Virus record (IMG/VR): IMGVR_UViG_3300025108_000047
Location: 1-60,318 of that record
Direction: 5' to 3' (one strand)
Length of the DNA stretch: 60,318 nt
DNA from: a virus
Taxonomy: Duplodnaviria; Caudoviricetes
The notes under the pieces are model-generated. The model was not told the origin of the DNA, ran no database searches, and worked only from the letters and a program-made list of their open reading frames with translations. Numbering within the stretch: position 1 is the stretch's first letter; each line of letters opens with the position of its first letter. Positions 3,485 to 55,000 of the stretch are shown piece after piece. Both the position numbers and the translations under genes were made by a program.

Positions 3485-3754
3485 ATGTATAAGACATACG
3501 TTATAAAAAATCTTCAAACTACAGACACTACTTTAAGAGATGGTGAAGAGTTGCTTTCTGTTTACGTATCAAACACGTCTACAGCAGACCAAGCATTTAA
3601 TTTAAAAGTAGATGAAGTTTACGTTTACGAAGGTATTGTTATACCTCCTAGCGTAACTTTAGTTTTAGACAACCCAATTATTTTTGACACTAATAGAATT
3701 ACAGTTTCAGCAGGAGCAGCAGATAAACTTGACATAACATATACGGTGAAATAA
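3485..3754 (+). CDS. Small beta-rich hypothetical protein
   Basis: 89-aa ORF, translationally coupled to 3754 (TAATG). Confidence 0.6.
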   Translation: MYKTYVIKNLQTTDTTLRDGEELLSVYVSNTSTADQAFNLKVDEVYVYEGIVIPPSVTLVLDNPIIFDTNRITVSAGAADKLDITYTVK

Positions 3755-4791
3755 TGAAAACAAAAATTTATTTATTTTTAATTTTAGCGTTTTTCACATA
3801 TACATCAGACGCTCAATTTAAAAAACCATTTAAGTTTTCTACATTTTATATTGCAGCCAACGGCGGAACTTCTTTAGCTGACGAAAACATTTACTCAGTA
3901 AATAACAGCTTTCTTTCTACAGACACAATAACAATACCTTTTGACTACTCTTTAACTATGGGTATTCGTAAAATTAAAAGATTTGGCTACGAATCCGTTA
4001 GCAAGTTTAAAGACGGTACTGAGTCTGCATACGGAGACGCTGCTACTATTGGCTTATCTCCTTTTGAATATTTATTTGAAGTAGATTATAGAAGACAAGA
4101 GGGAATAGAATATTTAGACCAACATCATTTTCTTAGATACGTAAAGCCTTTGTGGATGACTAAAGTGTCATACATTAAAGAGGGTTTTGCAGACATTGAA
4201 TATTACGAGGCTACACAAAGATTTAGAATTAATGGCAAAAAGAAATTATCTTTTAATATAGGAGGAGTGCAAAGACTTGCAGAGCCTTATGGATATGACC
4301 CATTAGAAGAATGGTTAATAGCTTCAGGACAGCTACACTATACTTGTTTAGCGATTGAAGAAGGTTACAGCGTAGATGTATACGAATCTGAATATAGAGA
4401 CCCAAATGGTAATTTAGTAGCGCAGAACGCAACTATATGGAATGAGGTTGTTATACCTGAAATGCTGAATGATTACGTAGAAAAGAAAAAGAATGAGTTA
4501 GACAATCAATGGCAATACTCTTTGGTAGTAGGATTTGACTTTTATCATTATAAGAAAAACTTCTGGTTACACTCTTGGGGTAACTTAATGCCTTATCATT
4601 ATAATGGTGGAGGTGAATATTCATATCACAACTTTAATGACGGAGAACAATGGTATGACTACTCAGGAGGATTAATCTTTGGATACAACCTAAACAGAAA
4701 TGTTGGTTGCTTTATAGAAGGTAAGTACAACAAGTATTGGAACAGAGAATGGTACGACTTTAAATTTGGTATTAATTATAGAATATTTTAA
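3754..4791 (+). CDS. Putative outer-membrane beta-barrel protein
   Basis: Sec-type signal peptide (MKTKIYLFLILAFFTYTSDA/Q), aromatic-rich alternating strands and a C-terminal beta-signal-like FGINYRIF. Confidence 0.65.
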   Translation: MKTKIYLFLILAFFTYTSDAQFKKPFKFSTFYIAANGGTSLADENIYSVNNSFLSTDTITIPFDYSLTMGIRKIKRFGYESVSKFKDGTESAYGDAATIGLSPFEYLFEVDYRRQEGIEYLDQHHFLRYVKPLWMTKVSYIKEGFADIEYYEATQRFRINGKKKLSFNIGGVQRLAEPYGYDPLEEWLIASGQLHYTCLAIEEGYSVDVYESEYRDPNGNLVAQNATIWNEVVIPEMLNDYVEKKKNELDNQWQYSLVVGFDFYHYKKNFWLHSWGNLMPYHYNGGGEYSYHNFNDGEQWYDYSGGLIFGYNLNRNVGCFIEGKYNKYWNREWYDFKFGINYRIF

Positions 4792-5068: not shown

Positions 5069-5421
5069 TGAAAAAGATAGCAGAATGGAAGATGTTTGGA
5101 ATGTACTTGTTAGTATTATTTTTATTGGTAGCCTCACATACTGCTTTCTCTCAGGTAAAAGTGATACACTTTAATGCTGATTTTAATTCAGCTAATGATG
5201 TTATTTGGTTTTCAAAATTAAAAGAATGTGATAGACAAACACTTTTGATAGAGCAAAACGATAATCAAGCTAAATACGAAATAGCTATTGTACCAACAAT
5301 AGTAGTGTTTGATGATGGTGAAGAAGTAAAAAGATTTCAAGCAGACATAAGCTTTAAAATGGCTGCTACAAGAAAAGAAGTACAAGAATATATTGATGAA
5401 TTAATAATAAGCAAATTCTAA
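5068..5421 (+). CDS. Exported thioredoxin-fold protein lacking CxxC
   Basis: Signal peptide and YEIAIVPTIVVFDDGEEVKRF (Trx cis-Pro region); FNADFN replaces WCxxC. Confidence 0.65.
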   Translation: MKKIAEWKMFGMYLLVLFLLVASHTAFSQVKVIHFNADFNSANDVIWFSKLKECDRQTLLIEQNDNQAKYEIAIVPTIVVFDDGEEVKRFQADISFKMAATRKEVQEYIDELIISKF

Positions 5422-7250
5422 TGAACAGATTTACTAAATTTTTATATGCGTTTATTATGGTTGTAGTGTTTACACTTTCAACTGCTTTTTCACAATGTCC
5501 TAACGGAACTTACTTAAATGTAGTTATTAATCCCGACCAATACCCACAAGAAACATCTTGGGTTATCACCAATGCTTACGGAGACACTATAGTCACAGGA
5601 GGGCCTTATACTGATATAATAGATTATTCACCTCAAGTAACACAGCTTTGTGTTCCTAATGGTGACTACTACTTTGACATATACGACACCTATGGAGATG
5701 GAATACAAGGAAGTTTATGGGGAGGACAAGATGGTTCATACTACTTAATAAGATGTAATGATACTATAGTTGAAATGGATTCAGCTAACTTTGGCACGTA
5801 TACATACCATGAATTTACAGTAGAAGACTGCCCTCCTCCGCCACCTATATATGGTTGTATGAATAACAACTTTGTAGAGTTTTTACCAACAGCAACAGTA
5901 GACACAGGGATGTGTTTTACTGATAAAGTTTTCGGCTGCACAGAAGAAGACGCTTTTAATTACGATAGTCTAGCTAACACAAATATATTGGTAGACAGCT
6001 GTTTACACACCTTAGAGCTTACAGACTTAGCTGGTAATGGCTGGGCTGGAGCTTTTCTACAGGTATTTCAAGGTGACAACTTTTTAGGTATATTTACTTT
6101 AGAAGAAGGCTTTGACACTACTTTTACTTTTGAATTAAGTATATCAGAGCCTGTAGAGATAAAATTTAACACTACACAACAATCACAATTTACATCAGTA
6201 CAATGTGGTTATAGCTTATATTCAGAAGAACACTTAACAATAAGCGAACCAGGAGGTTTTGCAAATCCTTTAATTCCTTTTGCAATAAATACAGGTATGC
6301 CTTATTGTGGCAATAGTTGTGTAGAAAAAACATTTGGCTGTACAGATGATACAGCTTTAAATTATAACGAGAGTGTTAATACAGATGACGAAAGTTGCTA
6401 CTACGTTGCTGGGTGTACTAATCCAATATACTTAGAATATAGCGAAGAAGCTGACTTTGATAACGGAAGCTGTGAAACTCTTGTTGTTCTAGGCTGTATG
6501 GATGAAGCAGCCTTGAATTATAACCCTGAAGCAAACACACAACTAGAAGGTTCATGTGTTGATGTAGTTTTAGGATGTATGAATGAATTGGCGTTTAATT
6601 ATAACCCAAATGCTAACGTAGATGACGAAAGCTGTATACCTTTGTTGTATGGCTGCATAGACCCTGCGGCATTTAACTATTGCGATACTTGTAATACAGA
6701 CAACGAAAGCTGTATAGAATATTATTATGGATGTACAGACAGCACAGCAATTAATTATGACGATAACGCAAACTCTGATAATGGGTCTTGTGTTTATCCT
6801 TTGTCTGGCTGCACAGATGCGACTGCTATTAATTATAATGTCGAAGCTAACATATCAGACAGTAGTTGCTATTACTCTGCTGGTTGTAGCGTTGGTGATG
6901 TATACTACATTCCTAATGCGTGTTTTAGCTGGGTTATCCAAGTAGACCCGTATTGTTGCAACTCAACATGGGACGATGGTTGTGATGGGCTTTACGAATA
7001 TTGCGTAGACGGATGGACAGGGCCAGTAAGCGTTGAGACTTTTGACAGACTTGGAATAAACCCTTACCCAAATCCAACTAAAAATACTATTAATTTTAAT
7101 AACTTTGTAGACGTTGAGGTATATGATACAAAAGGAATTTTGGTAAACAGACACAAAAACATTAATGTTTTAAACTTGCCAAAAGGTATGTATCACTTAT
7201 TAATAACATTTGATGAATTAATTTTCAACAAAACAATAGTTAAATTATAA
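5421..7250 (+). CDS. Cys-rich GCTD-repeat secreted protein with T9SS-type C-terminal domain
   Basis: Signal peptide, nine GC(T/M/I)x..NY..A..DxxSC repeats, a DPYCCxxxWDxxC module and a C-terminal YPNP...LPKGMY..KTIVKL. Confidence 0.8.
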   Translation: MNRFTKFLYAFIMVVVFTLSTAFSQCPNGTYLNVVINPDQYPQETSWVITNAYGDTIVTGGPYTDIIDYSPQVTQLCVPNGDYYFDIYDTYGDGIQGSLWGGQDGSYYLIRCNDTIVEMDSANFGTYTYHEFTVEDCPPPPPIYGCMNNNFVEFLPTATVDTGMCFTDKVFGCTEEDAFNYDSLANTNILVDSCLHTLELTDLAGNGWAGAFLQVFQGDNFLGIFTLEEGFDTTFTFELSISEPVEIKFNTTQQSQFTSVQCGYSLYSEEHLTISEPGGFANPLIPFAINTGMPYCGNSCVEKTFGCTDDTALNYNESVNTDDESCYYVAGCTNPIYLEYSEEADFDNGSCETLVVLGCMDEAALNYNPEANTQLEGSCVDVVLGCMNELAFNYNPNANVDDESCIPLLYGCIDPAAFNYCDTCNTDNESCIEYYYGCTDSTAINYDDNANSDNGSCVYPLSGCTDATAINYNVEANISDSSCYYSAGCSVGDVYYIPNACFSWVIQVDPYCCNSTWDDGCDGLYEYCVDGWTGPVSVETFDRLGINPYPNPTKNTINFNNFVDVEVYDTKGILVNRHKNINVLNLPKGMYHLLITFDELIFNKTIVKL

Positions 7251-21835: not shown

Positions 21836-22264
21836 TTAAAATGTTTGTTCTATTAATTTATGAAAATCCTCTACTGAAGCAACAGCTTCTTTCCAGTCAT
21901 TGTTTTTCTGACAAGCCTTAACCATTTGCAACATTGTGTATGAGCCTAGCTTAACTAATGCTGTGTCTGAATTGTCACCTTTATTAAGTTGACTATACTC
22001 AAAAGCTCCAACCATATTTCCTATAGTCATAACCTCTAGTAAATTTTGTGGGTCTAAATGGTATAAAGCACCAACCCAAATGTCTGAACGTTTCGTCATT
22101 TTTTTACCCTCTAAAGAATCTAAAACGTATTTTTTAAAGTTATCTGCAAGTTCAGATAATCTTTTGTTATCAATACCTATAGCTTCTGATAGGCTATCGC
22201 TTTCAGAGCTTGGTTTAAATTCAGATAATGTTTCTTGATAAAATTTCTTAAATTGATTTTTCAT
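21836..22264 (-). CDS. Hypothetical protein
   Basis: 142-aa ORF. Confidence 0.6.
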   Translation of the reverse strand: MKNQFKKFYQETLSEFKPSSESDSLSEAIGIDNKRLSELADNFKKYVLDSLEGKKMTKRSDIWVGALYHLDPQNLLEVMTIGNMVGAFEYSQLNKGDNSDTALVKLGSYTMLQMVKACQKNNDWKEAVASVEDFHKLIEQTF

Positions 22265-24452: not shown

Positions 24453-24746
24453 TTATTTATATATTTTAGCGAATGATTTGAATAAGTCTCCTAGAACAGA
24501 TGTCTGTTCTTCTTCAGAGTCTTGTTTTGTAACCAGGGTATACTTAGCGTATGAAACTGGTTCGTCAAACTTATTCTTAGACGTAATTGATTCTGACTTT
24601 ATATTGTGTCCCTCTTCTTTTAGATTGAAGATGACAGCGGCAAGTCTCATAATGCTGTAGTCAAAGTAAGCCTGACGTGGGTCAATGCTTCCGTAAGTTT
24701 CTAGGTGTCTTAACACTCTGTCCTTTTGATTTAATTTCTTAGCCAT
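24453..24746 (-). CDS. Winged HTH (HTH_39-like) protein
   Basis: QKDRVLRHL..GSI....A...Y.IMRLAAVI..LKEEGH.I. Confidence 0.7.
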   Translation of the reverse strand: MAKKLNQKDRVLRHLETYGSIDPRQAYFDYSIMRLAAVIFNLKEEGHNIKSESITSKNKFDEPVSYAKYTLVTKQDSEEEQTSVLGDLFKSFAKIYK

Positions 24747-24750
24747 AATA

Positions 24751-25068
24751 TTATTTTTTAAGATTATATTCTAAATTTCTAGTTTCATCTATGAATGTTG
24801 TAATATTTTCAAACAGCTCTTCTTCTGTCTCGCCATACTCTTTGTATAGTTCTATATACTTGAGTGTTTGAACAAGTAGCATATTAGCACTGTCTGCAAT
24901 ATTACCTATTGCATTTATGTATGATTGTTGCATCTCTTCGATTTCAACAAGTTGTTGTTTATGAGCCACCTCAATTTCTTTGAGGAGTTGCTCAAGCCTG
25001 ATAATTGATTCCATATTATTTAGTTGTTTTTTTGCTGTACGCATATTTATTAATTGTTGTAAATACAA
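24751..25068 (-). CDS. Coiled-coil hypothetical protein
   Basis: ORF in the early operon; start uncertain. Confidence 0.5.
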   Translation of the reverse strand: MYLQQLINMRTAKKQLNNMESIIRLEQLLKEIEVAHKQQLVEIEEMQQSYINAIGNIADSANMLLVQTLKYIELYKEYGETEEELFENITTFIDETRNLEYNLKK

Positions 25069-25258
25069 ATCCTGATATTAAGCCGACAAACAAAGCACCT
25101 TGTGTGCCAGTTGTTGATGTCAGAGCTATAATACCCATTGTATATAGTATATCTACGATTAGTCTCATAGTTGGATTACGTAAAGCCCATTCTGCTTTAG
25201 TGTCCTTAAGCATCCAGTATGCACCGAATGCCGTTCCGATAGCTGATAATAATATCAT
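25016..25258 (-). CDS. Multi-TM membrane protein
   Basis: MILLSAIGTAFGAYW...; ATG 25258 follows the stop of the upstream mini-ORF. Confidence 0.6.
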   Translation of the reverse strand: MILLSAIGTAFGAYWMLKDTKAEWALRNPTMRLIVDILYTMGIIALTSTTGTQGALFVGLISGFVFTTINKYAYSKKTTK

Positions 25259-25259
25259 A

Positions 25260-25436
25260 TTAGTTAACTTTTTTATTGGTTGAACGTTTCTTTTTTTGAG
25301 AGACATCGAAATTCTTAAGTCTTTCTTTTTGTCTCCTCCACATCTTCTCTTTATGTATTTCTGATAACATTAAGATTAGAAACCATATCGCACATATAAG
25401 TACGAATGTTGCAATAATTGATTGTAATTGTGACAT
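25260..25436 (-). CDS. 58-aa membrane-anchored basic protein (not in ORF track)
   Basis: Hand translation MSQLQSIIATFVLICAIWFLILMLSEIHKEKMWRRQKERLKNFDVSQKKKRSTNKKVN*. Confidence 0.55.
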   Translation of the reverse strand: MSQLQSIIATFVLICAIWFLILMLSEIHKEKMWRRQKERLKNFDVSQKKKRSTNKKVN

Positions 25437-25553
25437 AATGATATTCCCTGTTCTTAGTTATTGTATACTCAAGGGTGATGTATTTAGGTATACTATTAGT
25501 TTGCTCCCACACTCAATATTCTCTACGTGAATGTGGGTTAATTTGACAGTAGG

Positions 25554-25790
25554 TTATGCAAAGTAATTGTTAACCTGTATGTCTAATACTTGATTGACGT
25601 GTTCGTCAAACTTGTTATCGTCTATTGACAATAGTGTTGAGGCTGGTGTCATTCTCGTTGAGAGGTCTTTGACGTTAGCCTTGACGTAGTTAAAGTTGTT
25701 AAACTTTGGCTCAAAGTCTGTTGCCTTGAGAATCTTGTATGTCCACGTACCTGGTACGTTAATGACATGGTATCCGAAGATTGTTTTCAT
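25554..25790 (-). CDS. Early hypothetical protein
   Basis: 78 aa with an A-rich leader. Confidence 0.6.
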   Translation of the reverse strand: MKTIFGYHVINVPGTWTYKILKATDFEPKFNNFNYVKANVKDLSTRMTPASTLLSIDDNKFDEHVNQVLDIQVNNYFA

Positions 25791-26069
25791 AATTATTTAA
25801 TTGATTGATTTAGTTACTATTTATTTAGATGATTGATAATTTATTTGTTATTAAGTTTATTAACATAGACTTGTTTTTGTCACAAAAAACCCCGAACTTT
25901 GGTGGGTAAGAGGTCTAGTATTACTTATTATGTAGTGAACTTCTAAATAACATAACGACAGTTATATTCTTGTTATTACACTACATTTTTATTATAAGTC
26001 TCTGATAATTAGACAGTTATATGTTATTATCCACATAAAACGTATTAGATTATATGATAATATAGGTGA

Positions 26070-26318
26070 TTATAGAGTATCACTCGCTGTCTTAAACAGA
26101 TTAAATTCTATATTATAGTAGTTATCTACTAGTTTATTTGGGATAAATCTGTCTATTAATGAGATGTTATTAGATTTATTAGGTAGAACAGTATAGCCGA
26201 CAGACTCAAGTTGTCGTTTTCTATAGTTAAATACACGTCTCATCTTCATTCTTTGTTCGTTAATAGCTTGTACCTCGTACGTAGTATTAACTTTCTTGTA
26301 GTTGATTCTTGTTCTCAT
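26070..26318 (-). CDS. Early hypothetical protein
   Basis: 82 aa, 2 nt downstream of the previous stop. Confidence 0.55.
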   Translation of the reverse strand: MRTRINYKKVNTTYEVQAINEQRMKMRRVFNYRKRQLESVGYTVLPNKSNNISLIDRFIPNKLVDNYYNIEFNLFKTASDTL

Positions 26319-26320
26319 AG

Positions 26321-26740
26321 TTATATAGTCTCAATAGAGTATTGTGAGTAAGTACTTCTATAGTTATTGTACTTAGCTCTGGTTGTTATTGTGAAGTATC
26401 TGTTGCCTTGGGCTGATAGCTTCGTGAGTATTAGTATTGGATTGTCTGGTGTTCCCATTGACTTGATATAATCTATCATTGTATTTAGATTACGTTTCTG
26501 CATGGAGTTCCAGATGTCTTCCATTCTCCTTGGTAGGTGAGAGTAGAAGTGTACTGGTAGTTCTTCCCAGTCTCCTTTGCCGTTGAACTTGTGGTTAACG
26601 TCTAGGTTTGCTTGGATGTACCTTTCTCCTTGGTTGTCATAGGCCACCTTAGTGGTTGATTTACTAAAGCTTTCGCTGTAGTTGTTTAGTACTTGGCTTC
26701 TTACGATAGCCTTTACTGGTTGATACTTTTTAGTATACAT
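26321..26740 (-). CDS. Early hypothetical protein downstream of the hammerhead ribozyme
   Basis: 139 aa; ATG 18 nt 3' of the ribozyme. Confidence 0.65.
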   Translation of the reverse strand: MYTKKYQPVKAIVRSQVLNNYSESFSKSTTKVAYDNQGERYIQANLDVNHKFNGKGDWEELPVHFYSHLPRRMEDIWNSMQKRNLNTMIDYIKSMGTPDNPILILTKLSAQGNRYFTITTRAKYNNYRSTYSQYSIETI

Positions 26741-26758
26741 AGTTTACTTTATTAAGTT

Positions 26759-26809
26759 ACTGTTTCGTTCTTTTGAACTCATCAGATAAGATACTCATCT
26801 TATTACAGT
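26759..26809 (-). ncRNA. Type III hammerhead ribozyme
   Basis: Minus-strand RNA ACUG-UA^-AUAAGAU-GAGU-AUCUUAU-CUGAUGA-GUUC-AAAA-GAAC-GAA-ACAGU: full core, three perfect stems and a GUA cleavage triplet. Confidence 0.92.
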
Positions 26810-26862
26810 GAGTAGTTTTGAATCTTACTCAGGATTATTGATTTACTTTTAGTATTATCAAT

Positions 26863-27072
26863 TTACTTTTTGATTTTACTTATAGTATGTTTAGTTAGTA
26901 TTTCTACGTTTGCTAATAGGTTTCCTATGGTGTAACCTGCTTGTCTTCTACCTGATTTATGTTTTAGGTAGTAAGCTGCTGAGTGGGTCATACCGTCTAT
27001 GAACCCTTTAGTTTTGTTGCCTCCTTCTTGATACATTTTTGCCAAGAGGATAGCTTTTTCTTGATTTGTCAT
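26863..27072 (-). CDS. Early hypothetical protein upstream of the ribozyme
   Basis: 69-aa ORF. Confidence 0.55.
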   Translation of the reverse strand: MTNQEKAILLAKMYQEGGNKTKGFIDGMTHSAAYYLKHKSGRRQAGYTIGNLLANVEILTKHTISKIKK

Positions 27073-27083
27073 AATAGTTTTAG

Positions 27084-27260
27084 TTATTTAGTTTTGTTTA
27101 TTACTTCGTTAATAATTGGTTTTAGTTCTTTAAGTATGTTTAGTATTAGTATTCCATTTTCTTTTAGATATTCTGGAGTTACTTCTACGTTTACCTTGAT
27201 GTTTTCTATTTTAACCTCTTCTGAGATTTGTAGATTTGATAATTCGAATGATGTTTTCAT
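27084..27260 (-). CDS. 58-aa early hypothetical protein (not in ORF track)
   Basis: Hand translation MKTSFELSNLQISEEVKIENIKVNVEVTPEYLKENGILILNILKELKPIINEVINKTK*. Confidence 0.55.
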   Translation of the reverse strand: MKTSFELSNLQISEEVKIENIKVNVEVTPEYLKENGILILNILKELKPIINEVINKTK

Positions 27261-27286
27261 AATAGTTTAATTTGATTTGGTTTTAT

Positions 27287-27487
27287 TTATTTAATTAGTG
27301 ATTTATAATAGTGATAAGCTTTTACTATTGGTATAGTTATTAGTGCTTCTATTGTTTGTAATATAAATGGGATTGGTGTTAATATTAGTAAGAGTAGTTC
27401 TCCTAATAGTTTTAACAATGTTTTTAATGTGTTTGTGAATCTGACTTGTGTTGATGAAGTCATTTGTTGTAGTGCAATTTTAAGCAT
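27287..27487 (-). CDS. Hydrophobic early protein (first gene of the minus arm)
   Basis: 66 aa with a hydrophobic central segment. Confidence 0.5.
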   Translation of the reverse strand: MLKIALQQMTSSTQVRFTNTLKTLLKLLGELLLLILTPIPFILQTIEALITIPIVKAYHYYKSLIK

Positions 27488-27592
27488 AATGTTGTTATTA
27501 AGTTAATTAGTACCCCCCGTTCGGGTTAAGTGTATGTGTAGGGGGGATTGACACATATAGCATCCCTCAACCTCAAACCAAAAAATTTTTTT

Positions 27593-27600
27593 TAACTTTG
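27593..27600 (+). promoter_or_regulatory. Bacteroidetes -7 promoter element TAACTTTG
   Basis: 4 nt before ATG 27605, at the start of the late arm. Confidence 0.65.
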
Positions 27601-27604
27601 GCAA

Positions 27605-27880
27605 ATGATGGAAATGGAAAATGGAAAGATAAACTGCGTTGATGACGTTTGCGTGGTAGACAAATATTACCGTGAGTATAGCGAGCTAATGGCTGACGCT
27701 AATAAAATAAGAGAAAGGTTTAAGGAGGAAGACTTTAAGTTGGTAGAAAAGAAGGAGTACATAATGGACGAACTAATGTTAGAAGATGACTTTAGAAGAA
27801 AGTATGTAAACGTAGCTCAAATATCTTGTATTCCTGGCTATAGATTTATGACTAGACTTATATTAAAACAAATAAGTTAA
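27605..27880 (+). CDS. Hypothetical protein
   Basis: 91-aa first late-arm ORF. Confidence 0.6.
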   Translation: MMEMENGKINCVDDVCVVDKYYREYSELMADANKIRERFKEEDFKLVEKKEYIMDELMLEDDFRRKYVNVAQISCIPGYRFMTRLILKQIS

Positions 27881-27885
27881 ATTTG
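27878..27885 (+). promoter_or_regulatory. Bacteroidetes -7 promoter element TAAATTTG
   Basis: 5 nt before ATG 27891. Confidence 0.6.
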
Positions 27886-27890
27886 CATAT

Positions 27891-28424
27891 ATGTATTTAT
27901 TAAAGGTGAGCAAAAAGGGTAGCATCCACAAGGACGCTGACTCGATTATGGTAATTCCAGAGTTCGTAAATCTTATGAAAGCTGAAGGTATGGGTGAAAC
28001 TGCAATGAAATGGGTTGCGCTTATGCACGACTACGAAAGTCCATACAGATATTTAAGTGTAGACGAAAGGTCGAAGGCAGTTAGTAAGGACTTGTTTGAC
28101 ACGTATGACTGGAACGGCAAAAAAAAATCCGTGCTGCAAGCAGCAGTAGATAAATACAAGAAACTACAATTCGACCCACTAGACGAACAGTTAATAGCAT
28201 TCAATGCTAAAATAGACCAGTTCACTAAGTATATGAATAGTATGATTATTAATGATGATAATGCTGAAAGCTTACAGAAGTTAATGATTGGTATCGAAAA
28301 GATATTAAAGACACGACAGACTTTAGTAGACGTTATTGAAAGGAGGGGTGAGCGTCAAAAGATTGTAGGTGATAAACAACTTAGCTTTTTAGAAAGCAAG
28401 TTAAATAGAGATAATGATAAATAA
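27891..28424 (+). CDS. Putative terminase small subunit
   Basis: 177 aa, helical, overlapping the start of TerL; positional inference. Confidence 0.5.
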   Translation: MYLLKVSKKGSIHKDADSIMVIPEFVNLMKAEGMGETAMKWVALMHDYESPYRYLSVDERSKAVSKDLFDTYDWNGKKKSVLQAAVDKYKKLQFDPLDEQLIAFNAKIDQFTKYMNSMIINDDNAESLQKLMIGIEKILKTRQTLVDVIERRGERQKIVGDKQLSFLESKLNRDNDK

Positions 28425-30228
28425 AGACGTACAAAGATACAGACCTGTTGTTAATAATGGACATCCTGATTTAAGTCCAGACTCTATTTCTTATCAAGAA
28501 TATTGGGAACAAGAAAGAGACAGATGTATTAATGGATACAAGCCAAGAGGAATGGATAAGATTTCTGGCAAGTATTACTTCTACTTAAATTACTTTAAAA
28601 TATTAGGTAACTCTGGAGCTGCTGGAAACAGAAAGACTCTTATTAGTCCTTGGTACAGAGAAATGGATAAAGAGTACTTTGAAACTTTTGAGACTTGCAA
28701 AGACGAAGGAAAAGGTATGATTGTTATTAAAGCCAGAGACAAAGGGTTTAGTTATATGAACTCAGGACTTCTAGCACACGAATTTACATTCTTTCCCTTT
28801 AATGATGTAGGGGTAGCGGCAGGACTTCAGTCTTCAGCAACATCATTCTTTAACAAAGTAAAAAATGGACTTAATAATATACATCCTAACTTTAGGCACT
28901 CATCACTCAAAGATACTGATGAGATTTATAAAGCTGGATACAAGCTTAAAAATAAAGACGGCAAGTGGGAAACTGGGGGATACCAGTCTCAGATTATCTG
29001 TAGAACAATGGATAACCCAGAAGTATTCAAAGGGGAAAGGCTCGGTGTTATGGTTTTTGAAGAAGCAGGGGAATTTAAAAGATTAAAGAACGCATATATG
29101 TCTTCTAAAGCCTGTTTCATGGATGGTGACATTCAATATGGTGTTCCTGTTATTGGTGGAACGGGTGGTGACATTACTAAGTCTTCTAAAGATTTTATGG
29201 AGATGTATTATAATGCAGACGCATTCAACCTTATACCTTCCTTTATACCTGCTAGTAGAGCGTATTACGGATTTTACGACATTGAGTCGGGCATAGAGGA
29301 TGAAGTGGGAGCTAGAAAAAAATTAGAGTCAGACAGAAAAAAGGTCGAGGCCGACCAAAAAGCGTACAACCTTCACTTACAAAACTACCCTATGACTGTG
29401 GAAGAGGCTTTTTTAAATACAAAGTCTAGTAGATTTAATATCTCACTTATTAACCAACAACGTGGTAAAATAATGACTGATACTAAATTAAAAGGTCAAA
29501 TACAAAAAGGAGACTTACACTGGGTGTCTGACGACAACGGAACACTTTCCGTGGAGTTTGAACCTCATCAACACGGGAAATTCAAGATTCTCCACCACCC
29601 GCGAACCAACTTCGTTGGTTTAGACATTGGAGGTGTGGATAGCTATGACCAAGACCAAGCAGGAGCTAGTACGTCTGAGGGGTGCGCGATGATATATAGA
29701 AGATTTTATAATGTAGATGAGCCAGGCGATATGCTTGTAGCTGAGTATACAGACAGGCCAGACAGAAAGGAAGACTTCTACGATGGCGTTTTAAAGTTAG
29801 CAGTATACTATAATGCAAAAATGTTAATAGAATATACAAAAATTGCTATTATAGACTACTTTAAGAAAGAAGGTATGCAAAGTTTGCTAAAAGAAAAGCC
29901 TGCATCAGCACATAATATTAGAACATTAACGCGAAACACCTACGGTGTTCACATGAATAAACAAGTTAAATCTTATATGGAGGATTTAATGGATGATTAT
30001 ATTAAGTCATCTATAAACGACATTTGGTTCTACGACTTACTTGAAGAATTATCACTATATGGACAAAGAAATACTGACCGAGCAATAGCGTTTGGACTAT
30101 GTCTTTTACATAATAATGACAATTATAGAAGGAAAGTTTTGGATGCTGAAGAAAAAATTAGTAAAGAATCGCTAGGATTTCGTAAATTTGCAATGAATAG
30201 CCAAGGTATACCAAAAAAAATACGATAG
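28414..30228 (+). CDS. terL: Terminase large subunit (crAss-like)
   Basis: KARDKGFSY Walker A-like, FEEAG Walker B, GGTGG, GVDSYD nuclease motif and NTDRAIA. Confidence 0.92.
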   Translation: MINKDVQRYRPVVNNGHPDLSPDSISYQEYWEQERDRCINGYKPRGMDKISGKYYFYLNYFKILGNSGAAGNRKTLISPWYREMDKEYFETFETCKDEGKGMIVIKARDKGFSYMNSGLLAHEFTFFPFNDVGVAAGLQSSATSFFNKVKNGLNNIHPNFRHSSLKDTDEIYKAGYKLKNKDGKWETGGYQSQIICRTMDNPEVFKGERLGVMVFEEAGEFKRLKNAYMSSKACFMDGDIQYGVPVIGGTGGDITKSSKDFMEMYYNADAFNLIPSFIPASRAYYGFYDIESGIEDEVGARKKLESDRKKVEADQKAYNLHLQNYPMTVEEAFLNTKSSRFNISLINQQRGKIMTDTKLKGQIQKGDLHWVSDDNGTLSVEFEPHQHGKFKILHHPRTNFVGLDIGGVDSYDQDQAGASTSEGCAMIYRRFYNVDEPGDMLVAEYTDRPDRKEDFYDGVLKLAVYYNAKMLIEYTKIAIIDYFKKEGMQSLLKEKPASAHNIRTLTRNTYGVHMNKQVKSYMEDLMDDYIKSSINDIWFYDLLEELSLYGQRNTDRAIAFGLCLLHNNDNYRRKVLDAEEKISKESLGFRKFAMNSQGIPKKIR

Positions 30229-49019: not shown

Positions 49020-52000
49020 ATGGGAAAATTTTCTGACGCTGGTAGTTTTTTTAATTCAAGAAATCAAAAACCACAAGCTCCGCAACAGCCAGACTCACCT
49101 TCTGCTAACTTGCAGAATCAACTATTGAAAGAACAAGTTGATGCTACAACAAAAAAGAGTGAAGGAGGGTATGATGCTTTTCAGCAATATAAAGGTGGCT
49201 CTAACTTTGACGAACAAGGACAGCGTGTAGGAAATACTCAGGAAGATATTTTAATGAGTGGAGGCACAAAGCTTGGAAAAAGTTTAGTTGCTGGTACTGG
49301 AGACGTTATAGAACAAGTTGTAGACTTAACTCAATTAGTTTATAATTTTGGAACACCTCTTGGTGCAGCAGAAAGAGCTGTTGGATTAGACTTTAGCAAA
49401 AACTTTTTTGACTGGGTTAAAGAAAATACATCTCAAGAATTACAAGACTATGCTGTAACATATCAAAAGCCAGGGTCAGAAGACTTCAAGTGGTCAGACT
49501 TGGGGACATCAGACTTTTGGACAACAGACTTTGCAAGACAAGTCCCCAACTTATTATCAATGATGGCGGGGGGTGCAGGACTAGTTAAAGGAGCGGGAAC
49601 TCTTATGACTAAAATGGCAACTAAGTCTATTGCAAAAGGTGGAGCAAGATTAGCAAAAGCTGGCGCATTATCTTCTAAGGTTGTAGACCCAGCTGGAAGA
49701 ACTATTGGACAGATAGGCGGAAAAGGTATTGGTAAATTATTTACAAGGTCAGAAGGTGCTGTAGGATTAAGTACAAAAGGAAAGCTTGTAGCTGGTATTG
49801 GAGGTGGTGCAGGAATGAACTTAGTTGATGGTGGTATTGTTGCTGGTATGGCTTATGATAGAGCTTTAGAAGAGTTTGGAAGCGATGAAGAAGGAAGAAA
49901 GTTAGCTGGGCAAATAGCTGCTGATATATTTATAGACAACTCTAAGTGGATGGCTGTAGACGCATTGTCTTGGGGATTTACATTCGGAGGTGGTTCTAAA
50001 GTTATACTAGGTAAAGCAACACAAAAGCTAGGGCAAATAAAAAACGGATTTGGTAAAAGAGCTGCAAATATATTAGTTAATGCAAGTGCAGGTTCTGCTG
50101 CTGGTGCTGCTATTGGAGGAGCTGCTACGTTAGGAGAAGAAGGAATGGGTGACGCTATGAAGACAGGAGCGTTAGCTGGACTTGGAGCTGGACTTCTTAA
50201 AGGAACTAGAGGTGTAAAAGCTGCTGGTATGTTAGCTCCAGAAGGTATTGAAGAAATGTTTCAGGAAACTTATCAAGAGTGGATTGAGAAGAAAGCTTTT
50301 AACGAAGCTAGAGGTGAAGAAGAAAAAACACCTACTTACTGGGACTTTTATTCATCTGATGAAGCAAGAAAAACAAAAGCTATATCGCTTATATCTGGTA
50401 TGGCTGGCTCTACTGTAGGTGGATACACAAACTTAATTAATGACGTAGCGGACAGAAGTTTTGAAAACGACAAAAAGATAGACGCTATAAGCTCTATAAT
50501 GGATAGAGCCAATAATGCAGACAACACATACGACAAAACATCTGCAATGTATGACATGGTTTCTCAGTCTGTAGCTGACCAAAACGATGACAACTTATTA
50601 GCATGGATAAACGGAGAAGCAAGTAAAGAGGGTGGCGCTGTAGACGCAAAACTACAAACTGAGCTTGTTGCTTTTATGAATGAGCAAAAAAAGACTTACG
50701 AAAAAGTAGGTAGTGGTATGAAAAATATTACCGCTAATGAAAAGTCAAGATTATTTAGAATGCAAACTGGTATTTCTAAAAACGCTGCTGAATTTAGTGA
50801 GCAGTCTACAATATACAACGAACAAAAAGCTGATTTAACAAATCAACTTAAAGATATAGAAAGCAGCAACTTAAGTGATTCTGCTAAAAAACAAGCTGTA
50901 AGCAATCTTAACGAACGTATAGCAGAGCTAGACGCAGACTTTAATACATTACAAAATAATGTTAACAAAGCTAATAGCGAAATACAAGAAGAAATAAACA
51001 CCTATACTACTGGTTTAATTACTAAATCTAAAGTAAGAAAAGCGGCAAGCGTAGAGGGTATTAAAGATGCTGTTAAGTCTGCTACAAGTCAAATAGGTAA
51101 GTTTGGTAAAGGAGTAAAAGAATTTTCAGAAGGAGTTTTTGATGGTGTAAATAAAGCAAAAGCAGACTATACAAAAAGAAAACAAGAGGAGCAGGCACAA
51201 CAAGCTGAACAAGCACCAGAAGGGCAAGAGCCTACGTTAGGTGAAGATATTTTTGATATGCCTAAAGAAAATGTGTTTAACACAATGGTTCAGTTGTTTA
51301 GAACAAGTTACAAAGGCAGTGATATTGATACTGATATGTTCACAAACGAACAATTAGATAAAATAATCTCTGAAGCATTTACTGAAAACGGAATAGACGG
51401 AACAGCAAGTCAAGAAGAGTTTGCAGCTAAATTTGATGCAATAGAAAAATCTGTTAACGCAAAGCACAAAACTTTTGTAGAAAATAAAGCTAAAGCTGCT
51501 GAAGAGTCTGAGCCTACTAAAAAGTCTACTTTTCAAAAAGCAAAAGAAAAAACAACAGAAGTTGTTGGAAAAGTTGTAGATACTGTTAAAGAAGGAGCTG
51601 AATCTGTTAAAGAAGCTTTTACTAAAAAAGAGCCTGAAGCAGAAGTTGTTTCTAAAAAAGAGTCTGATACTCCTAAAGTTAAAGATGATGTTTCTTCTGA
51701 TGTTATAGAAGATATAGAGTTTGAAGAAGTTACAGAAAACTCTGAAAAAGATAATCCTTTAAAATCTAAAATTAACGAAGAGTTTGATAAAGAAATTGCT
51801 GAAATTCAAGTTGAAATAGATAAAGAAACTGATGAAGAAAGAATAAAAATACTTCAAAAAGCTTTGGCTGAAGTTAAAGAGTCTAAACTCAGAAAAGTAC
51901 AAGGAGAGCCGTCAAAGCCTATAGGTAAAAAAGAGTCTGTAAGAAAGGCTAAAAAAGATGCTAAAAAAGCTAAAGATAAATATAAATTTAGCTGGTATAA

Positions 52001-55000
52001 TCCTTTAGGAATATTAGAAAGAAGAAAGTTTAGAAAAGAAAGAAATAAAAAAGTAAAAGAAGCTATAGCTAAATTTGACGAAGCTAAAAAACAAAACTCA
52101 TTACATTACGTTTATGCTTTAAAAGACGCTAACTATCCAAACTCTGCTATTATTACTTTAGCTGAGATGTCTCAAATGTTTGGTGAAGCAGGTACTTCTG
52201 CTGTAGTAAACGCAACTATATATGCTTCTAACAGACCAGACTTTGCTAATATAGTTAAGCATGAGTTTGGACACGTACTTTACCCTTTGTTTCAGGACAC
52301 TCCTTTAATGCAAGATATTAAAAGACTAATTCTTGAAGATGGTAAAATAATTAAAAATATAACGCAGACTTATCCTGAGTTAATTTTATTTGACACAGAA
52401 CTAGGCCCACAAACTATTGAAGAAATAATAATAAATCCTAACATATATAAAAATATGTTAGACCACAATTCTACTATAGAGGGTGACATGAAAAGTATTG
52501 TAGAAAGTTTAAACACAGGCAGAATATTTACTAATGAAATAAACTCTTTACTTAGCAAGATAAAGGGCATGGACTCTATATCTATTGCTAAACCAGAAAA
52601 TCAAGAATTACTTATAGAAGAAGCTTTTGCTCATTACCTAGAAAAAGACAGCATTACTCTTGCAGACATAATAGCTAAAGACGTTAAGACTGAGCAAAGA
52701 CTTAAAAGAAAGGTTAATATTGTTGCAGAAAAAATTAAAGTTCCTTCCAAAACTACAGACGAACAAAAGTTTGAAATTATAAAAACAATGGACTCTCCTG
52801 CTAATAGAGCAGACACGCTAGAAGAAGCTTTAGATATTATAAGAAGAGACGCTGACAGAAGAAGTAAAATACATAAGCCTAAAAGAAGTTCTAGGGTTAT
52901 GAGAAAAAAGCCAAACAAATCATTAAATGATATAGCTCAAGCACATTATGAGAACTCAGAGCTTGTTAAAGCTATTCTTATAAACAATAGAGGAGCGTAT
53001 GAATCTATGATTATGTCTTCTATAGAAGAGCTGTCTGGTAAAGAATTGTCGCAAGAACAAATAAAAGAGGTTTTACAAAAAGAAGCGCGTATATTTTTAA
53101 ATGTTATTAATAAACAAGAATCCGCTACCTCTGGACTTATAAATAAAAACAAAAATTATCAATATGACGAAGCAAGTATAGACGACATATCTGGCTCAGT
53201 ACTAAGTGAGCTTATAGCAGAAGGTACTTTAGGTAATAATGAAATTACACAAGCTTTAGAGTTTGCTGGAGTATTAGACAAAAATGCCGAAAGAATACCT
53301 TTCTTGTTTGAAGAAGAGTTAGATGACTTTGTGATGACAAAAGACTCTAATGACAATGTCGCAATACAGAACGAAAGGTCTTCTACATCTAAATTTATAG
53401 ACGCTTTTGTTCTTTACTTAAATAGCGAAAGAGGTAAGTTTTTATTAGAAAGCGGAAAGCTAGAAGGAGAGTTAAATCTTTACAACGAAGGAGCTATCAG
53501 AAGAAATATTAGAAAAGAGTTTAGAAAAGCTTTAGTTCCTAAAGGAGAAAATGTATTTATAGCAGACTTTATGGACTCTATAATTAATCCTAAAACACCT
53601 TTATTAAAAGCATTTAAACAATTTACTTTAGACCTATATAAAGATAAGTACGGAAGTGTTGCTGGCTCTAATCAGTACTTGAATGCTATAGCAAGAGGAA
53701 TACATCACGAACAATCTTCTAATGTTGTTGAGTCCAGAGATATTTTATTTTACACAGAACAAGACTCTGATTATTTTATAGAGCCTAGTATAGCTGAGTT
53801 TGAACAATTTGTAATTGAAGACCTTATTACAGACAATGAAACCAATGTAAGCTTAGATAGACTTAACCTCTTAAAAGACTCTAAAAGAGTTAATATGCTT
53901 GAATTAATAGAGGCTATAGGTGATATTAAGTTTAAATCTAAATCTGCACAAGCATACTTAGACCAATTTGCAATACAAGAGTCTTTTACTTTTATGCACA
54001 AAGGTAAAACTCTTAAGGCTGTAGACGTAGTAAATGATATTATTAAGTCTAACGGTAAAATAGATTCTGAGTTATTAAAAAGCATAGCAACTGAAATAAC
54101 AATGCTTTCAAGAGACCTTAACCAAATTACGATGGTTGATATGGCTAGACTTGAAACTGGAACAAGTCTTTTAAACAAAACATCTTCTTTGTATGAGGGC
54201 TTTAAGTCTATGAAGCAATACCTTAATGACCAAACTACACCTACAAATGAAATAATTAAAGAGGTTTCTAATGGTTCTGTATTTGATTATTTAATAAACA
54301 AACTGGGAATAAGTCCTAAAATATCTGCTTCATCTGGAGTAAGGGTAACAGATATTGATGGAATGATAAAAGGTGATAGTTATGTAAACCTTTCTCCTGA
54401 CGAAATATTAATGAGTGACATTTTAAGAATGCTTACTGTAGACGAGGAGTCATATCAAATGCCTATAATGGTATTTAGTGAAAAGTCTAGAAGATATAAT
54501 GTTACTGTTCCTAAATATAAAAACCTAAGAACTACTAAAAACAATTTTGTAGAAGATTTAGCTAAAGAAATAGAAGGTGCAAGATATTCTAAAGGAGACA
54601 AAGTTTCTAATTTATTTCAAATCTCAAATAAAAATAATACTTTCGATAGCATTGTTAACAAAAAAGAACTTGCAAAACAAGTTAAGTTTTTAGAAAATTA
54701 TATTAAAGACAATCCTTATATAATTACCAACTTAATTCAAAACGGAGTTATAAAATCTACTGATGGTAAAGTTCCTAATTCATTACTGGAGGATTTAGTT
54801 GTGTCTACAGCACTAAACAAATACTCTGCTCAAAAAACTTTAGTAGCTAAACATAGTGATAGAAAGAATGCAGTAGACTATACTAAGCGTTCTGCTATGG
54901 CAATAGCTAGACGTAGACCTGTGTTTGAGCATATAGAATATATCATAACTCCTGACTTGTATTACAATCCTAACGCTGAAGAAGGACTTGAATATCTTAC

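Follow-up and report, generated by a model that had tools for sequence, protein, structure and literature searches.

The IMG/VR virus record IMGVR_UViG_3300025108_000047, analysed here as one window over its whole length (60,318 nt, linear class, estimated to be 90% complete), carries a type III hammerhead ribozyme motif on its minus strand at 26759-26809, in the gap between two small open reading frames (ORFs) that run in the same direction. The assignment comes from a direct reading of the letters, from alignment to the Rfam family RF00008 (29 bits), from a covariance model of viral hammerheads that we call R2 (72.4 bits) and from covariation in 56 sibling sequences. Read 5' to 3' as minus-strand RNA from 26809 down to 26759, the element is made up of the following consecutive parts, listed here with the two flanking genes.

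26809-26805, minus: 5' strand of stem III, ACUGU
26804, minus: position 17, A
26803-26786, minus: stem I, 7 bp; AUAAGAU 26803-26797, loop GAGU 26796-26793, AUCUUAU 26792-26786
26785-26779, minus: core, CUGAUGA
26778-26767, minus: stem II, 4 bp; GUUC 26778-26775, loop AAAA, GAAC 26770-26767
26766-26759, minus: GAAA 26766-26763, then CAGU 26762-26759; stem III is ACUGU/ACAGU, 5 bp
26863-27072, minus: upstream ORF, 69 amino acids, no Pfam or PHROG match; its stop lies 53 nt before the hammerhead, and the same ORF end is found in the related viral contig L006
26321-26740, minus: downstream ORF, 139 amino acids, without Pfam or PHROG match, starting at an ATG 18 nt 3' of the hammerhead

Cleavage is predicted between 26804 and 26803 of the minus strand. 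Aligned to the RF00008 consensus, the conserved core C3-U4-G5-A6-N7-G8-A9 and G12-A13-A14 is intact (CUGAUGA at 26785-26779, GAA at 26766-26764). The cleavage triplet G26806-U26805-A26804 fits the N-U-H rule, and A26763 pairs with U26805 as the A15.1-U16.1 pair. The topology is that of type III, with three helices of 7, 4 and 5 bp, of which stems I and II are closed by loops and stem III is open. Judged at the level of sequence, the site shows every defining feature of a type III hammerhead, and only the curated Rfam score is missed.

An earlier sequence-only reading had proposed a consensus type III hammerhead on the minus strand, set between the co-directional ORFs 26863-27072 and 26321-26740 and followed by an ATG 18 nt to its 3' side. 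Our direct reading agrees with that proposal in sequence, stems, core and GUA triplet; both ORFs lie on the minus strand like the hammerhead, and the ATG is found at 26740. The 18-nt leader of the 139-amino-acid gene is A/U-rich and has no Shine-Dalgarno-like run.

Family matches and covariation of the hammerhead

Our own descriptor scan, which required the core, U16.1, three stems and any base except G at position 17, returned this one site only across both strands of the window. In first-order Markov simulations, the expectation was 0.01 per simulated window for stems of at least 4, 3 and 4 bp, and none appeared in 300 simulations when the stems had to reach at least 7, 4 and 5 bp. Model R2, which comprises 54 hammerheads from other viral contigs and excludes both the window and its near-identical relative L006, scores the site at 72.4 bits (E 2e-16), with the next best match in the window at 14.8 bits. 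Searched as a whole, the 60,318-nt record gave a single hammerhead match, the next best reaching 15.1 bits; with one match in 60,318 nt, an arrangement of several ribozymes flanking single genes or short blocks is not found in this record. Some sibling loci hold two or three hammerheads.

The whole-window scan against Rfam at gathering thresholds gave no match. A permissive scan of 26600-27000 with RF00008 (Hammerhead_3, clan CL00010) aligned model positions 3-52 of 54 at the exact coordinates of the site, which shares the core and topology of that family and differs from it in a loop II that is 4 nt shorter and in its A/U-rich stems.

An exact copy of the 27-nt stretch that begins at the core and runs to the 3' end is found in five viral contigs in which the flanks are unrelated and stem I is different yet paired. 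A broader pattern (CUGUH, gap, CUGAUGAG, gap, CGAAACAG) has at least 120 matches in viral contigs, and the sibling sets used below (56, 113, 115, 118 and others) are drawn from among the matches listed. Stems I and II are present in 129 of 141 such pattern matches, and 71 of these 129 reproduce the exact architecture of the window: stem I has 7 bp and is closed by G-W-G-U, and stem II has 4 bp and is closed by N-A-A-A.

Among 56 distinct siblings, standard pairs fill 94.9% of the pair cells, compared with 70.3% in shuffles, and changes on both sides of a pair are found in 271 cells, compared with 77 in shuffles. Sliding the partner columns by 1-3 positions reduces pairing to 32-49%. Stem I is paired in 99.7% of cases with six of its seven pairs changed on both sides, and stem II in 99.6% with three of its four pairs so changed, a covariation that is partly there by construction because the collection pattern fixed the core and four stem III pairs and a filter required at least 4/7 and 3/4 pairs. 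The fifth stem III pair, which the pattern left free, is paired in 46 of the 56 and occurs as all four Watson-Crick types. Among 115 siblings, 87 have C at position 17, 23 have A and 5 have U, so the GUA triplet of the window is one in use. The loops GWGU and NAAA are nearly invariant across siblings, which suggests a tertiary contact between stems I and II.

Close relatives behave in the same way. Stem II is GUUC/GAAC in the window, GUUU/AAAC in L006 and L130, and UUCU/AGAU at 10.2-10.4 in L133 and L141. In L133, L134, L141 and L144, a U/U replaces the G-C pair at 10.1/11.1 and stem II is re-paired. The covariation in related phage contigs to which the sequence-only reading had looked for confirmation is strong in stems I and II and is accompanied by compensatory stem II changes near at hand; rather than losing the core or the stems, the close relatives retain pairing through compensatory change. 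As a separate observation, U/U, A/A or C/A at 10.1/11.1 recurs elsewhere, including in L022, L051, L102 and L111, while the rest of stem II covaries. A pair other than G-C at this position looks like a tolerated or selected variant and not like decay.

A chance occurrence of the consensus in A/T-rich DNA would sit well with the folding energy, which taken alone is unremarkable (z -1.53; 15 of 200 shuffles are equally stable), and with a score below the Rfam threshold. The descriptor simulations, the sibling covariation, the R2 score of 72.4 bits and the compensatory changes in relatives leave this explanation with a negligible probability, and it is refuted because the conservation comes together with compensatory changes.

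The window's hammerhead is also placed as is usual for its family. Measured on 118 distinct phage examples, the gap between the end of the ribozyme and the next ORF start on the same strand has a median of 28.5 nt (45 nt or less in 65 of 106), and the gap between the end of the previous ORF and the ribozyme has a median of 34.5 nt (n=114).

The upstream hairpin and the conserved cassette

Immediately 5' of the hammerhead lies a hairpin, and the two together form part of a longer conserved unit.

26810-26833, minus: upstream hairpin motif CCUGAGUA-AGAUUCAAAAC-UACUC, 5-6 bp stem, 11-nt loop, abutting stem III
26752-26839, minus: conserved cassette AAUAAU-CCUGAG hairpin-hammerhead-GUAACUUAA, ~88 nt, from an alignment with L130, L133 and L141

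The hairpin stem GAGUA...UACUC spans 26830-26810, and the motif is present as a single copy in the window. In the general form CCURAGYA-loop-URCUY, it stands in front of 17 distinct hammerhead sequences (counting that of the window) from phage contigs and from some bacterial metagenome-assembled genomes (MAGs). Its stem covaries, being GAGCA/UGCUC or GAGUA/UACUC, while the loop sequence is conserved, and the motif is retained in L130, L133 and L141. The extra 5' hairpin noticed by the sequence-only reading is real and recurs in relatives, though it is weak.

Structure at this position extends to the siblings at large. The 45 nt upstream of sibling hammerheads fold with a mean of -14.3 kcal/mol, against -3.1 kcal/mol downstream and -6.7 kcal/mol for shuffled upstream sequences. 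An energy of -8 kcal/mol or lower is reached by 93 of 113 upstream stretches, compared with 13 of 113 downstream and 40 of 113 shuffled ones, and the hairpin ends 0-3 nt before CUGU in 84 of 100 phage siblings. A hairpin abutting stem III is a general trait of such phage hammerheads.

Across the window, L130, L133 and L141, the columns of the cassette are invariant save for compensated stem changes. Past the cassette, the sequence diverges in all four aligned versions; before it, the sequence diverges in L133. The genes that flank the cassette vary between relatives.

The position of the hairpin bears on an alternative in which a promoter lies in or just before the cassette. The hammerhead would then remove a short hairpin leader carrying a 5'-triphosphate, and the mRNA of the 139-amino-acid gene would start with a 5'-OH. 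A sigma-70-like sequence, TTGATA-16-AATAAT (10 of 12), is indeed found immediately ahead of the hairpin (26861-26834, minus), its AATAAT falls within the cassette and is retained in all four aligned relatives, and the conserved hairpin loop suggests recognition by a protein. There is also a precedent, since the mapped 5' end of the major early transcript of haloviruses HF1/HF2 is placed within 3 nt of the hammerhead site in the account given in PMC3088659. However, promoter-like matches occur at chance level in this A/T-rich region (16 against 11.7 +/- 3.6 expected), and the -35-like part is lost in L133. Bacteroidota promoters, moreover, deviate from the sigma-70 consensus, which we count against this alternative. 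Finally, the hairpin lies ~35 nt past a stop codon in most siblings and its repeated form (described below) mostly occurs without a ribozyme, so that it looks like a 3'-end structure and not a promoter. We consider leader trimming of this kind unlikely.

The same hairpin could in principle act as a conditional switch. UACUCA might pair either with its own hairpin strand or with UGAGUA at the tip of stem I, and a protein on the conserved loop, or ribosomes completing the upstream ORF, might decide between the two and thereby set whether cleavage takes place. UGAGUA is found at both 26831-26826 and 26797-26792, and the lowest-energy fold of a 161-nt context joins the hairpin region to stem I at the cost of stems I and III. 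That fold comes from a flat ensemble, in which the minimum structure has a frequency of 0.0015. Moreover, the complementarity is not retained in relatives, since L133 and L141 have UGUGUA in the loop together with a changed hairpin, and siblings with the same upstream motif have unrelated stem I loops. A switch is accordingly among the least probable of the explanations considered here, ahead only of chance.

Other phage loci carry one recurring form of the hairpin, GUGUCYU-N3-5-GACAC, as a repeated element with 106 sites in 20 loci and up to 10 copies per ~12 kb (among them L001, L005, L009, L015, L023, L024, L039-L041, L049, L052, L067, L073, L075, L084, L091, L103, L105 and L111). Just 20 of the 106 sites are directly followed by a hammerhead. 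The element looks like a lineage-specific intercistronic hairpin that marks intergenic sites in general, with the ribozyme an addition to some copies. A resemblance of upstream hairpins (GGGUUCAAACCC-like) to tRNA T-arms was followed up and dropped, as an ARAGORN search of the window and of L001-L005 returned no tRNA.

Just past the hammerhead stands the 10-mer AACUUAAUAA, of which the window holds four exact copies (27495-27504, 26749-26758, 25848-25857 and 21981-21990), all on the minus strand and in the minus-strand gene block. Three of them lie in leaders just past a structure, namely a GC hairpin, the hammerhead and a terminator-like hairpin near 25880-25905. The GC hairpin is a C6...G6 stem with a 22-nt loop at 27515-27548 (minus), which stands immediately upstream of the first gene of the minus-strand block and is followed by AACUUAAUAA and an ATG. 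We rejected the 10-mer as a leader or promoter motif: four copies compare with 1.5 expected, 3 of 100 shuffles reach four, copies with one mismatch number 26 against 27.3 expected, and the four aligned contexts share nothing past the 10-mer itself. AACUUAA-like words follow hammerheads in about ten other phage contigs.

The phage, its relatives and bacterial counterparts

The record encodes a Crassvirus muzzle protein (PF25731 crAss_MUZ, E 7e-123) and has PHROG matches to terminase, portal and major head protein. Its portal is 20-33% identical to those of 145 phage records, largely crAss-like or Flavobacterium, with ~30% identity to cr272_1 and similar phages. By these protein matches, the phage, which belongs to a marine lineage, is a distant crAss-like phage, so the crAss-like assignment made by the sequence-only reading is borne out, if at a distance. 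A 609-amino-acid protein encoded at 5421-7250 (plus strand) carries a type IX secretion sorting domain at its C-terminus (PF18962, E 3.8e-7), which is a hint of a Bacteroidota host. The absence of a Shine-Dalgarno-like run before the 139-amino-acid gene is, we presume, in agreement with such a host.

The hammerhead belongs to a tightly packed minus-strand block of 16 kb that runs from 27487 to 11685, and it occupies the fourth intergenic position, ~680 nt into the block. In order, the block encodes small ORFs of no known family, an AAA_5 ATPase, DUF7192, DnaB, a DnaA-C-like helix-turn-helix protein, a PD-(D/E)XK-like protein and PhoH. For the eight ORFs nearest the hammerhead, Pfam and PHROG searches gave no family, save a PHROG of unknown function at 24453-24746, and a GenBank phage DNA similarity search with 25500-28500 gave no match.

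The block may be termed early by analogy. The sequence-only reading had gone further and placed the hammerhead in the earliest transcript, probably made by a virion RNA polymerase. This is unsupported, given the fourth intergenic position of the hammerhead and a giant ORF (49020-60317) that has no polymerase match. The giant ORF gave no match in PDB (phmmer), Pfam or PHROG, and 3000 of its residues gave no tblastn match in phage records; no DFDxD motif is found in its 3766 residues, the ORF being open at the record end, and a DIDTD stands at residue 768. Coming after the muzzle and tail genes, it could by position be a crAss-type virion RNA polymerase or cargo protein. An open frame at 2-508, at the start of the record, may be the end of this ORF. 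For the early transcripts that phi14:2 makes with its virion polymerase, no common upstream motif is known from the portion of that work concerned with them (10.1101/2020.03.07.982082), and because of this the polymerase is not inferable from sequence.

The 139-amino-acid protein is 96-99% identical in three viral contigs (L006, L007 and L008). L006 and L008 carry the hammerhead; stem I is unchanged, stem II is compensated (GUUU/AAAC), and an extra small ORF stands between the hammerhead and the 139-amino-acid gene. L007 has no hammerhead in 6.4 kb of sequence. There, a C6...G6 hairpin lies one small ORF away from the 139-amino-acid gene, which indicates that L007 is without the three small ORFs and the cassette.

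Among 80 loci with related terminases, a hammerhead match at E <=0.01 is found in six. Five of these fall within the group of 18 loci whose terminases are at least 90% identical, 13 of which cover at least 1.7 kb upstream of the terminase gene (L133, with 1.5 kb, has a match), and one is among the 62 loci at 65-70% identity. The family model matched none of the four reference Crassvirales examined (phi14:2, crAss001, cr272_1 and Carjivirus communis). In Flavobacterium phage Fpv2 it gave a weak match (19.8 bits), which was set aside as coding sequence without the stems. In six relatives that lack the hammerhead (59,988 nt), no other Rfam ribozyme matched at E <=0.05.

Contigs from RNA libraries of two studies skip 27084-27270 and 27091-27279, roughly the extent of a 58-amino-acid ORF at 27084-27260. 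The skipped stretch (27084-27280) most likely reflects relatives that lack this small gene, not splicing.

The exact architecture of the window also has at least 120 matches in bacterial and archaeal genomes; the matches listed are overwhelmingly from MAGs of Patescibacteria (the candidate phyla radiation, CPR) and include chromosomes of ~1 Mb. Model R1 was applied to samples of 151 genomes from each of two phyla, with the scoring limited to 37 candidates in each genome. It matches 17 genomes in the phylum of a Kaiserbacteria MAG and a single one in that of a Flavobacteriaceae MAG, namely the centre genome itself. Among the bacterial matches listed, the upstream stretch folds at -8 kcal/mol or lower in 97 of 133 copies compared with 25 of 133 downstream, and a hairpin ends 0-3 nt from CUGU in 120 of 132. 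Many CPR copies (L208-L242 are examples) are followed by GUUCUUU, which is complementary to loop II and the 3' strand of stem II, AAAGRRC. This sequence could compete with stem II by alternative pairing; the window has no such sequence. A literature search found no relevant paper on this hammerhead architecture in Patescibacteria. In L016, a DUF805b RNA motif (RF02914, 42.7 bits, above threshold) lies at 3733-3765 on the plus strand, ~530 nt downstream of the L016 hammerhead.

This distribution would also be expected of a selfish or hitch-hiking intergenic element that spreads by recombination between phages and some bacteria, with any cleavage bringing no benefit to this phage or with an A/U-rich copy that is decaying in the window. 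Its spread is patchy, as the six of 80 relative loci and the four reference Crassvirales without a match illustrate. Among relatives whose terminases are at least 90% identical, the cassette is followed by four different genes, and the architecture is frequent in Patescibacteria (17 of 151 against 1 of 151 in the Bacteroidota sample). Four relatives (L133, L134, L141 and L144) carry U/U for G-C at 10.1/11.1, and the window copy is thermodynamically among the weakest. Yet the core is intact and stem changes between close relatives are compensatory, which implies purifying selection on the fold, and the 10.1/11.1 variants need not be decay, being found in several unrelated contigs with intact, covarying stems. 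We regard a selfish or hitch-hiking element as improbable, to about the same degree as leader trimming.

Predicted self-cleavage, its proposed role and known systems

We favour the reading that the window carries a functional self-cleaving type III hammerhead within a portable intercistronic cassette, in a distant crAss-like phage of a marine lineage whose host is probably a member of the Bacteroidota. From the sequence evidence set out above, we put its probability at roughly 0.78.

Several results weigh against it, the first being the Rfam score. The sequence-only reading had named RF00008 as the family to search, and the outcome was divided: the coordinates agree exactly, whereas the 29.0 bits (E 2.7e-4 in a 401-nt search) stay under the gathering score of 48.5. 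None of 16 sibling phage hammerheads in 14 loci reaches that threshold either, and for this reason the miss is, judged by these scores, a limit of the model seed and not of the motif.

A second group of adverse results concerns energetics. The nearest-neighbour minimum fold of a 58-nt piece contains stems II and III as the sequence-only reading had drawn them, but shifts stem I by a few bases, so that its register draws in C3 and U4. When contexts of 51-451 nt are folded with an energy model that omits the non-canonical core contacts and tertiary contacts, the canonical fold lies 1.4-2.1 kcal/mol above the minimum, and its predicted equilibrium share is ~1-4%. With its A/U-rich helices, the canonical fold has -9.4 kcal/mol, the second weakest value of 56 siblings, and the upstream hairpin of the window is likewise weak at -3.6 kcal/mol. 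The canonical fold is nevertheless the minimum in just 18 of the 56 siblings, with a median gap of 0.9 kcal/mol, which places the window within the sibling range.

Placement and distribution supply the remaining points on this side. By crude ORF calls, a same-strand ORF of at least 40 amino acids encloses 28 of the 118 phage examples, and an opposite-strand ORF of at least 100 amino acids encloses 7 of them; either intergenic placement is common and not universal, or the ORF calls are too loose. The patchy occurrence among terminase relatives shows the hammerhead to be dispensable, and even one very close relative, L007/L129, has none in 6.4-13.8 kb. The hammerhead is an accessory, cassette-like element of a marine lineage and no general crAss-like feature, which counts against a core role. 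Contigs from three runs recorded as RNA and one guessed to be so, all covering small portions of the window, compared with 25000-29000 at 88% likeness and carrying no transcript ends, are short, come from relatives and do not bridge 26742-26875 at meaningful depth; they are neutral on transcription and cleavage, and we list them on the negative side.

If the favoured reading is correct, the minus-strand block from 27487 to 11685 would be transcribed through the hammerhead, and the RNA would fold and cut itself after A26804, splitting the message between the 69-amino-acid gene and the 139-amino-acid gene. Hammerhead cleavage leaves a 2',3'-cyclic phosphate on one side and a 5'-OH on the other. 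The upstream piece would therefore end in a cyclic phosphate a few bases past the CCUGAGUA...UACUC hairpin, and the downstream piece would start at a 5'-OH, with stems I and II folded, and continue into the A/U-rich 18-nt leader and the ATG. The likely effect would be that the two genes become independent in stability and translation. Transcription across the hammerhead, cleavage in vivo and the effects on stability and translation are steps that we infer, and the 5'-OH end may have a stabilising role.

We see the window hammerhead, from its sequence and setting, as one of the phage and prophage intergenic hammerheads known since 2011 (PMC3088659), and the processing of phage polycistronic RNA by hammerheads was already published there by Perreault et al. 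In the experiments described in that paper, prophage hammerheads flanking genes cleave polycistronic RNAs of ~2 kb in vitro and in E. coli (PMC3088659). Like the phage hammerheads described there, the window's copy lies between co-directional phage genes whose neighbours vary between relatives, and the proposed role is the same, the cutting of long phage transcripts into shorter mRNAs. A parallel in position is the early-operon hammerhead of haloviruses HF1/HF2, which is placed 13 nt before a start codon, compared with 18 nt here; a 5' end maps no more than 3 nt from its cleavage site (PMC3088659). On the other hand, the window has a single copy and not a cluster, and it is of type III, whereas type II is stressed in the account of 2011. 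A hairpin abutting stem III is present here and was not found described in PMC3088659, supplementary alignments aside. The purpose of hammerheads in bacteria and phages is still undefined, according to the relevant statement of a review (PMC6765202). The host phage in the present case, unlike those of the 2011 study, is crAss-like, and our literature search found no paper on hammerheads in crAss-like phages.

The arrangement is also reminiscent of RiboJ, a synthetic insulator in which a hammerhead and a hairpin precede the ribosome site, the hairpin lying 3' of the ribozyme. Both combine self-cleavage just upstream of a translation start with a defined 5'-OH leader that is independent of upstream sequence. 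However, the hairpin of the window lies 5' of the ribozyme and would stay with the upstream fragment. Natural counterparts are the intercistronic RNase III hairpins of T7 early RNA and the promoter-stem-loop repeats between early genes of T4-type phages, which set mature mRNA ends. Like these, the cassette is structured and sits at places where the gene content of relatives differs, and one recurring form of the hairpin in sibling phages is also a repeated intergenic element, with its 106 sites in 20 loci. In contrast to T7, cleavage here would need no host enzyme, and the hairpin motif occurs only once in the window.

A tentative extension of the favoured reading, to which we give clearly less credence, is that the hairpin and hammerhead together form one functional and inherited unit. 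Such a cassette would be a portable, enzyme-independent punctuation of messages and a crossover point for the small early genes of marine crAss-like phages, with an architecture shared with Patescibacteria. The hairpin would provide a protected 3' end for the upstream mRNA, and the ribozyme body would provide a 5'-OH cap for the downstream mRNA.

The basic picture published in 2011 is unchanged by these findings. Less familiar are the crAss-like nature of the host phage, the location of the cassette at gene-content breakpoints, the hairpin next to stem III and the abundance of the architecture in Patescibacteria. The analysis adds a clean, previously unannotated ribozyme to a marine crAss-like phage, and because the curated Rfam threshold misses this whole phage sub-family (0 of 16), phage hammerheads are under-annotated. 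The unit of hairpin and hammerhead, should it prove real, offers a testable model for how phage mRNA ends may be made without host nucleases and for the sites at which early genes are exchanged. On this view, the architecture that is so frequent in Patescibacteria, with their small genomes, may take over RNA-processing jobs there.

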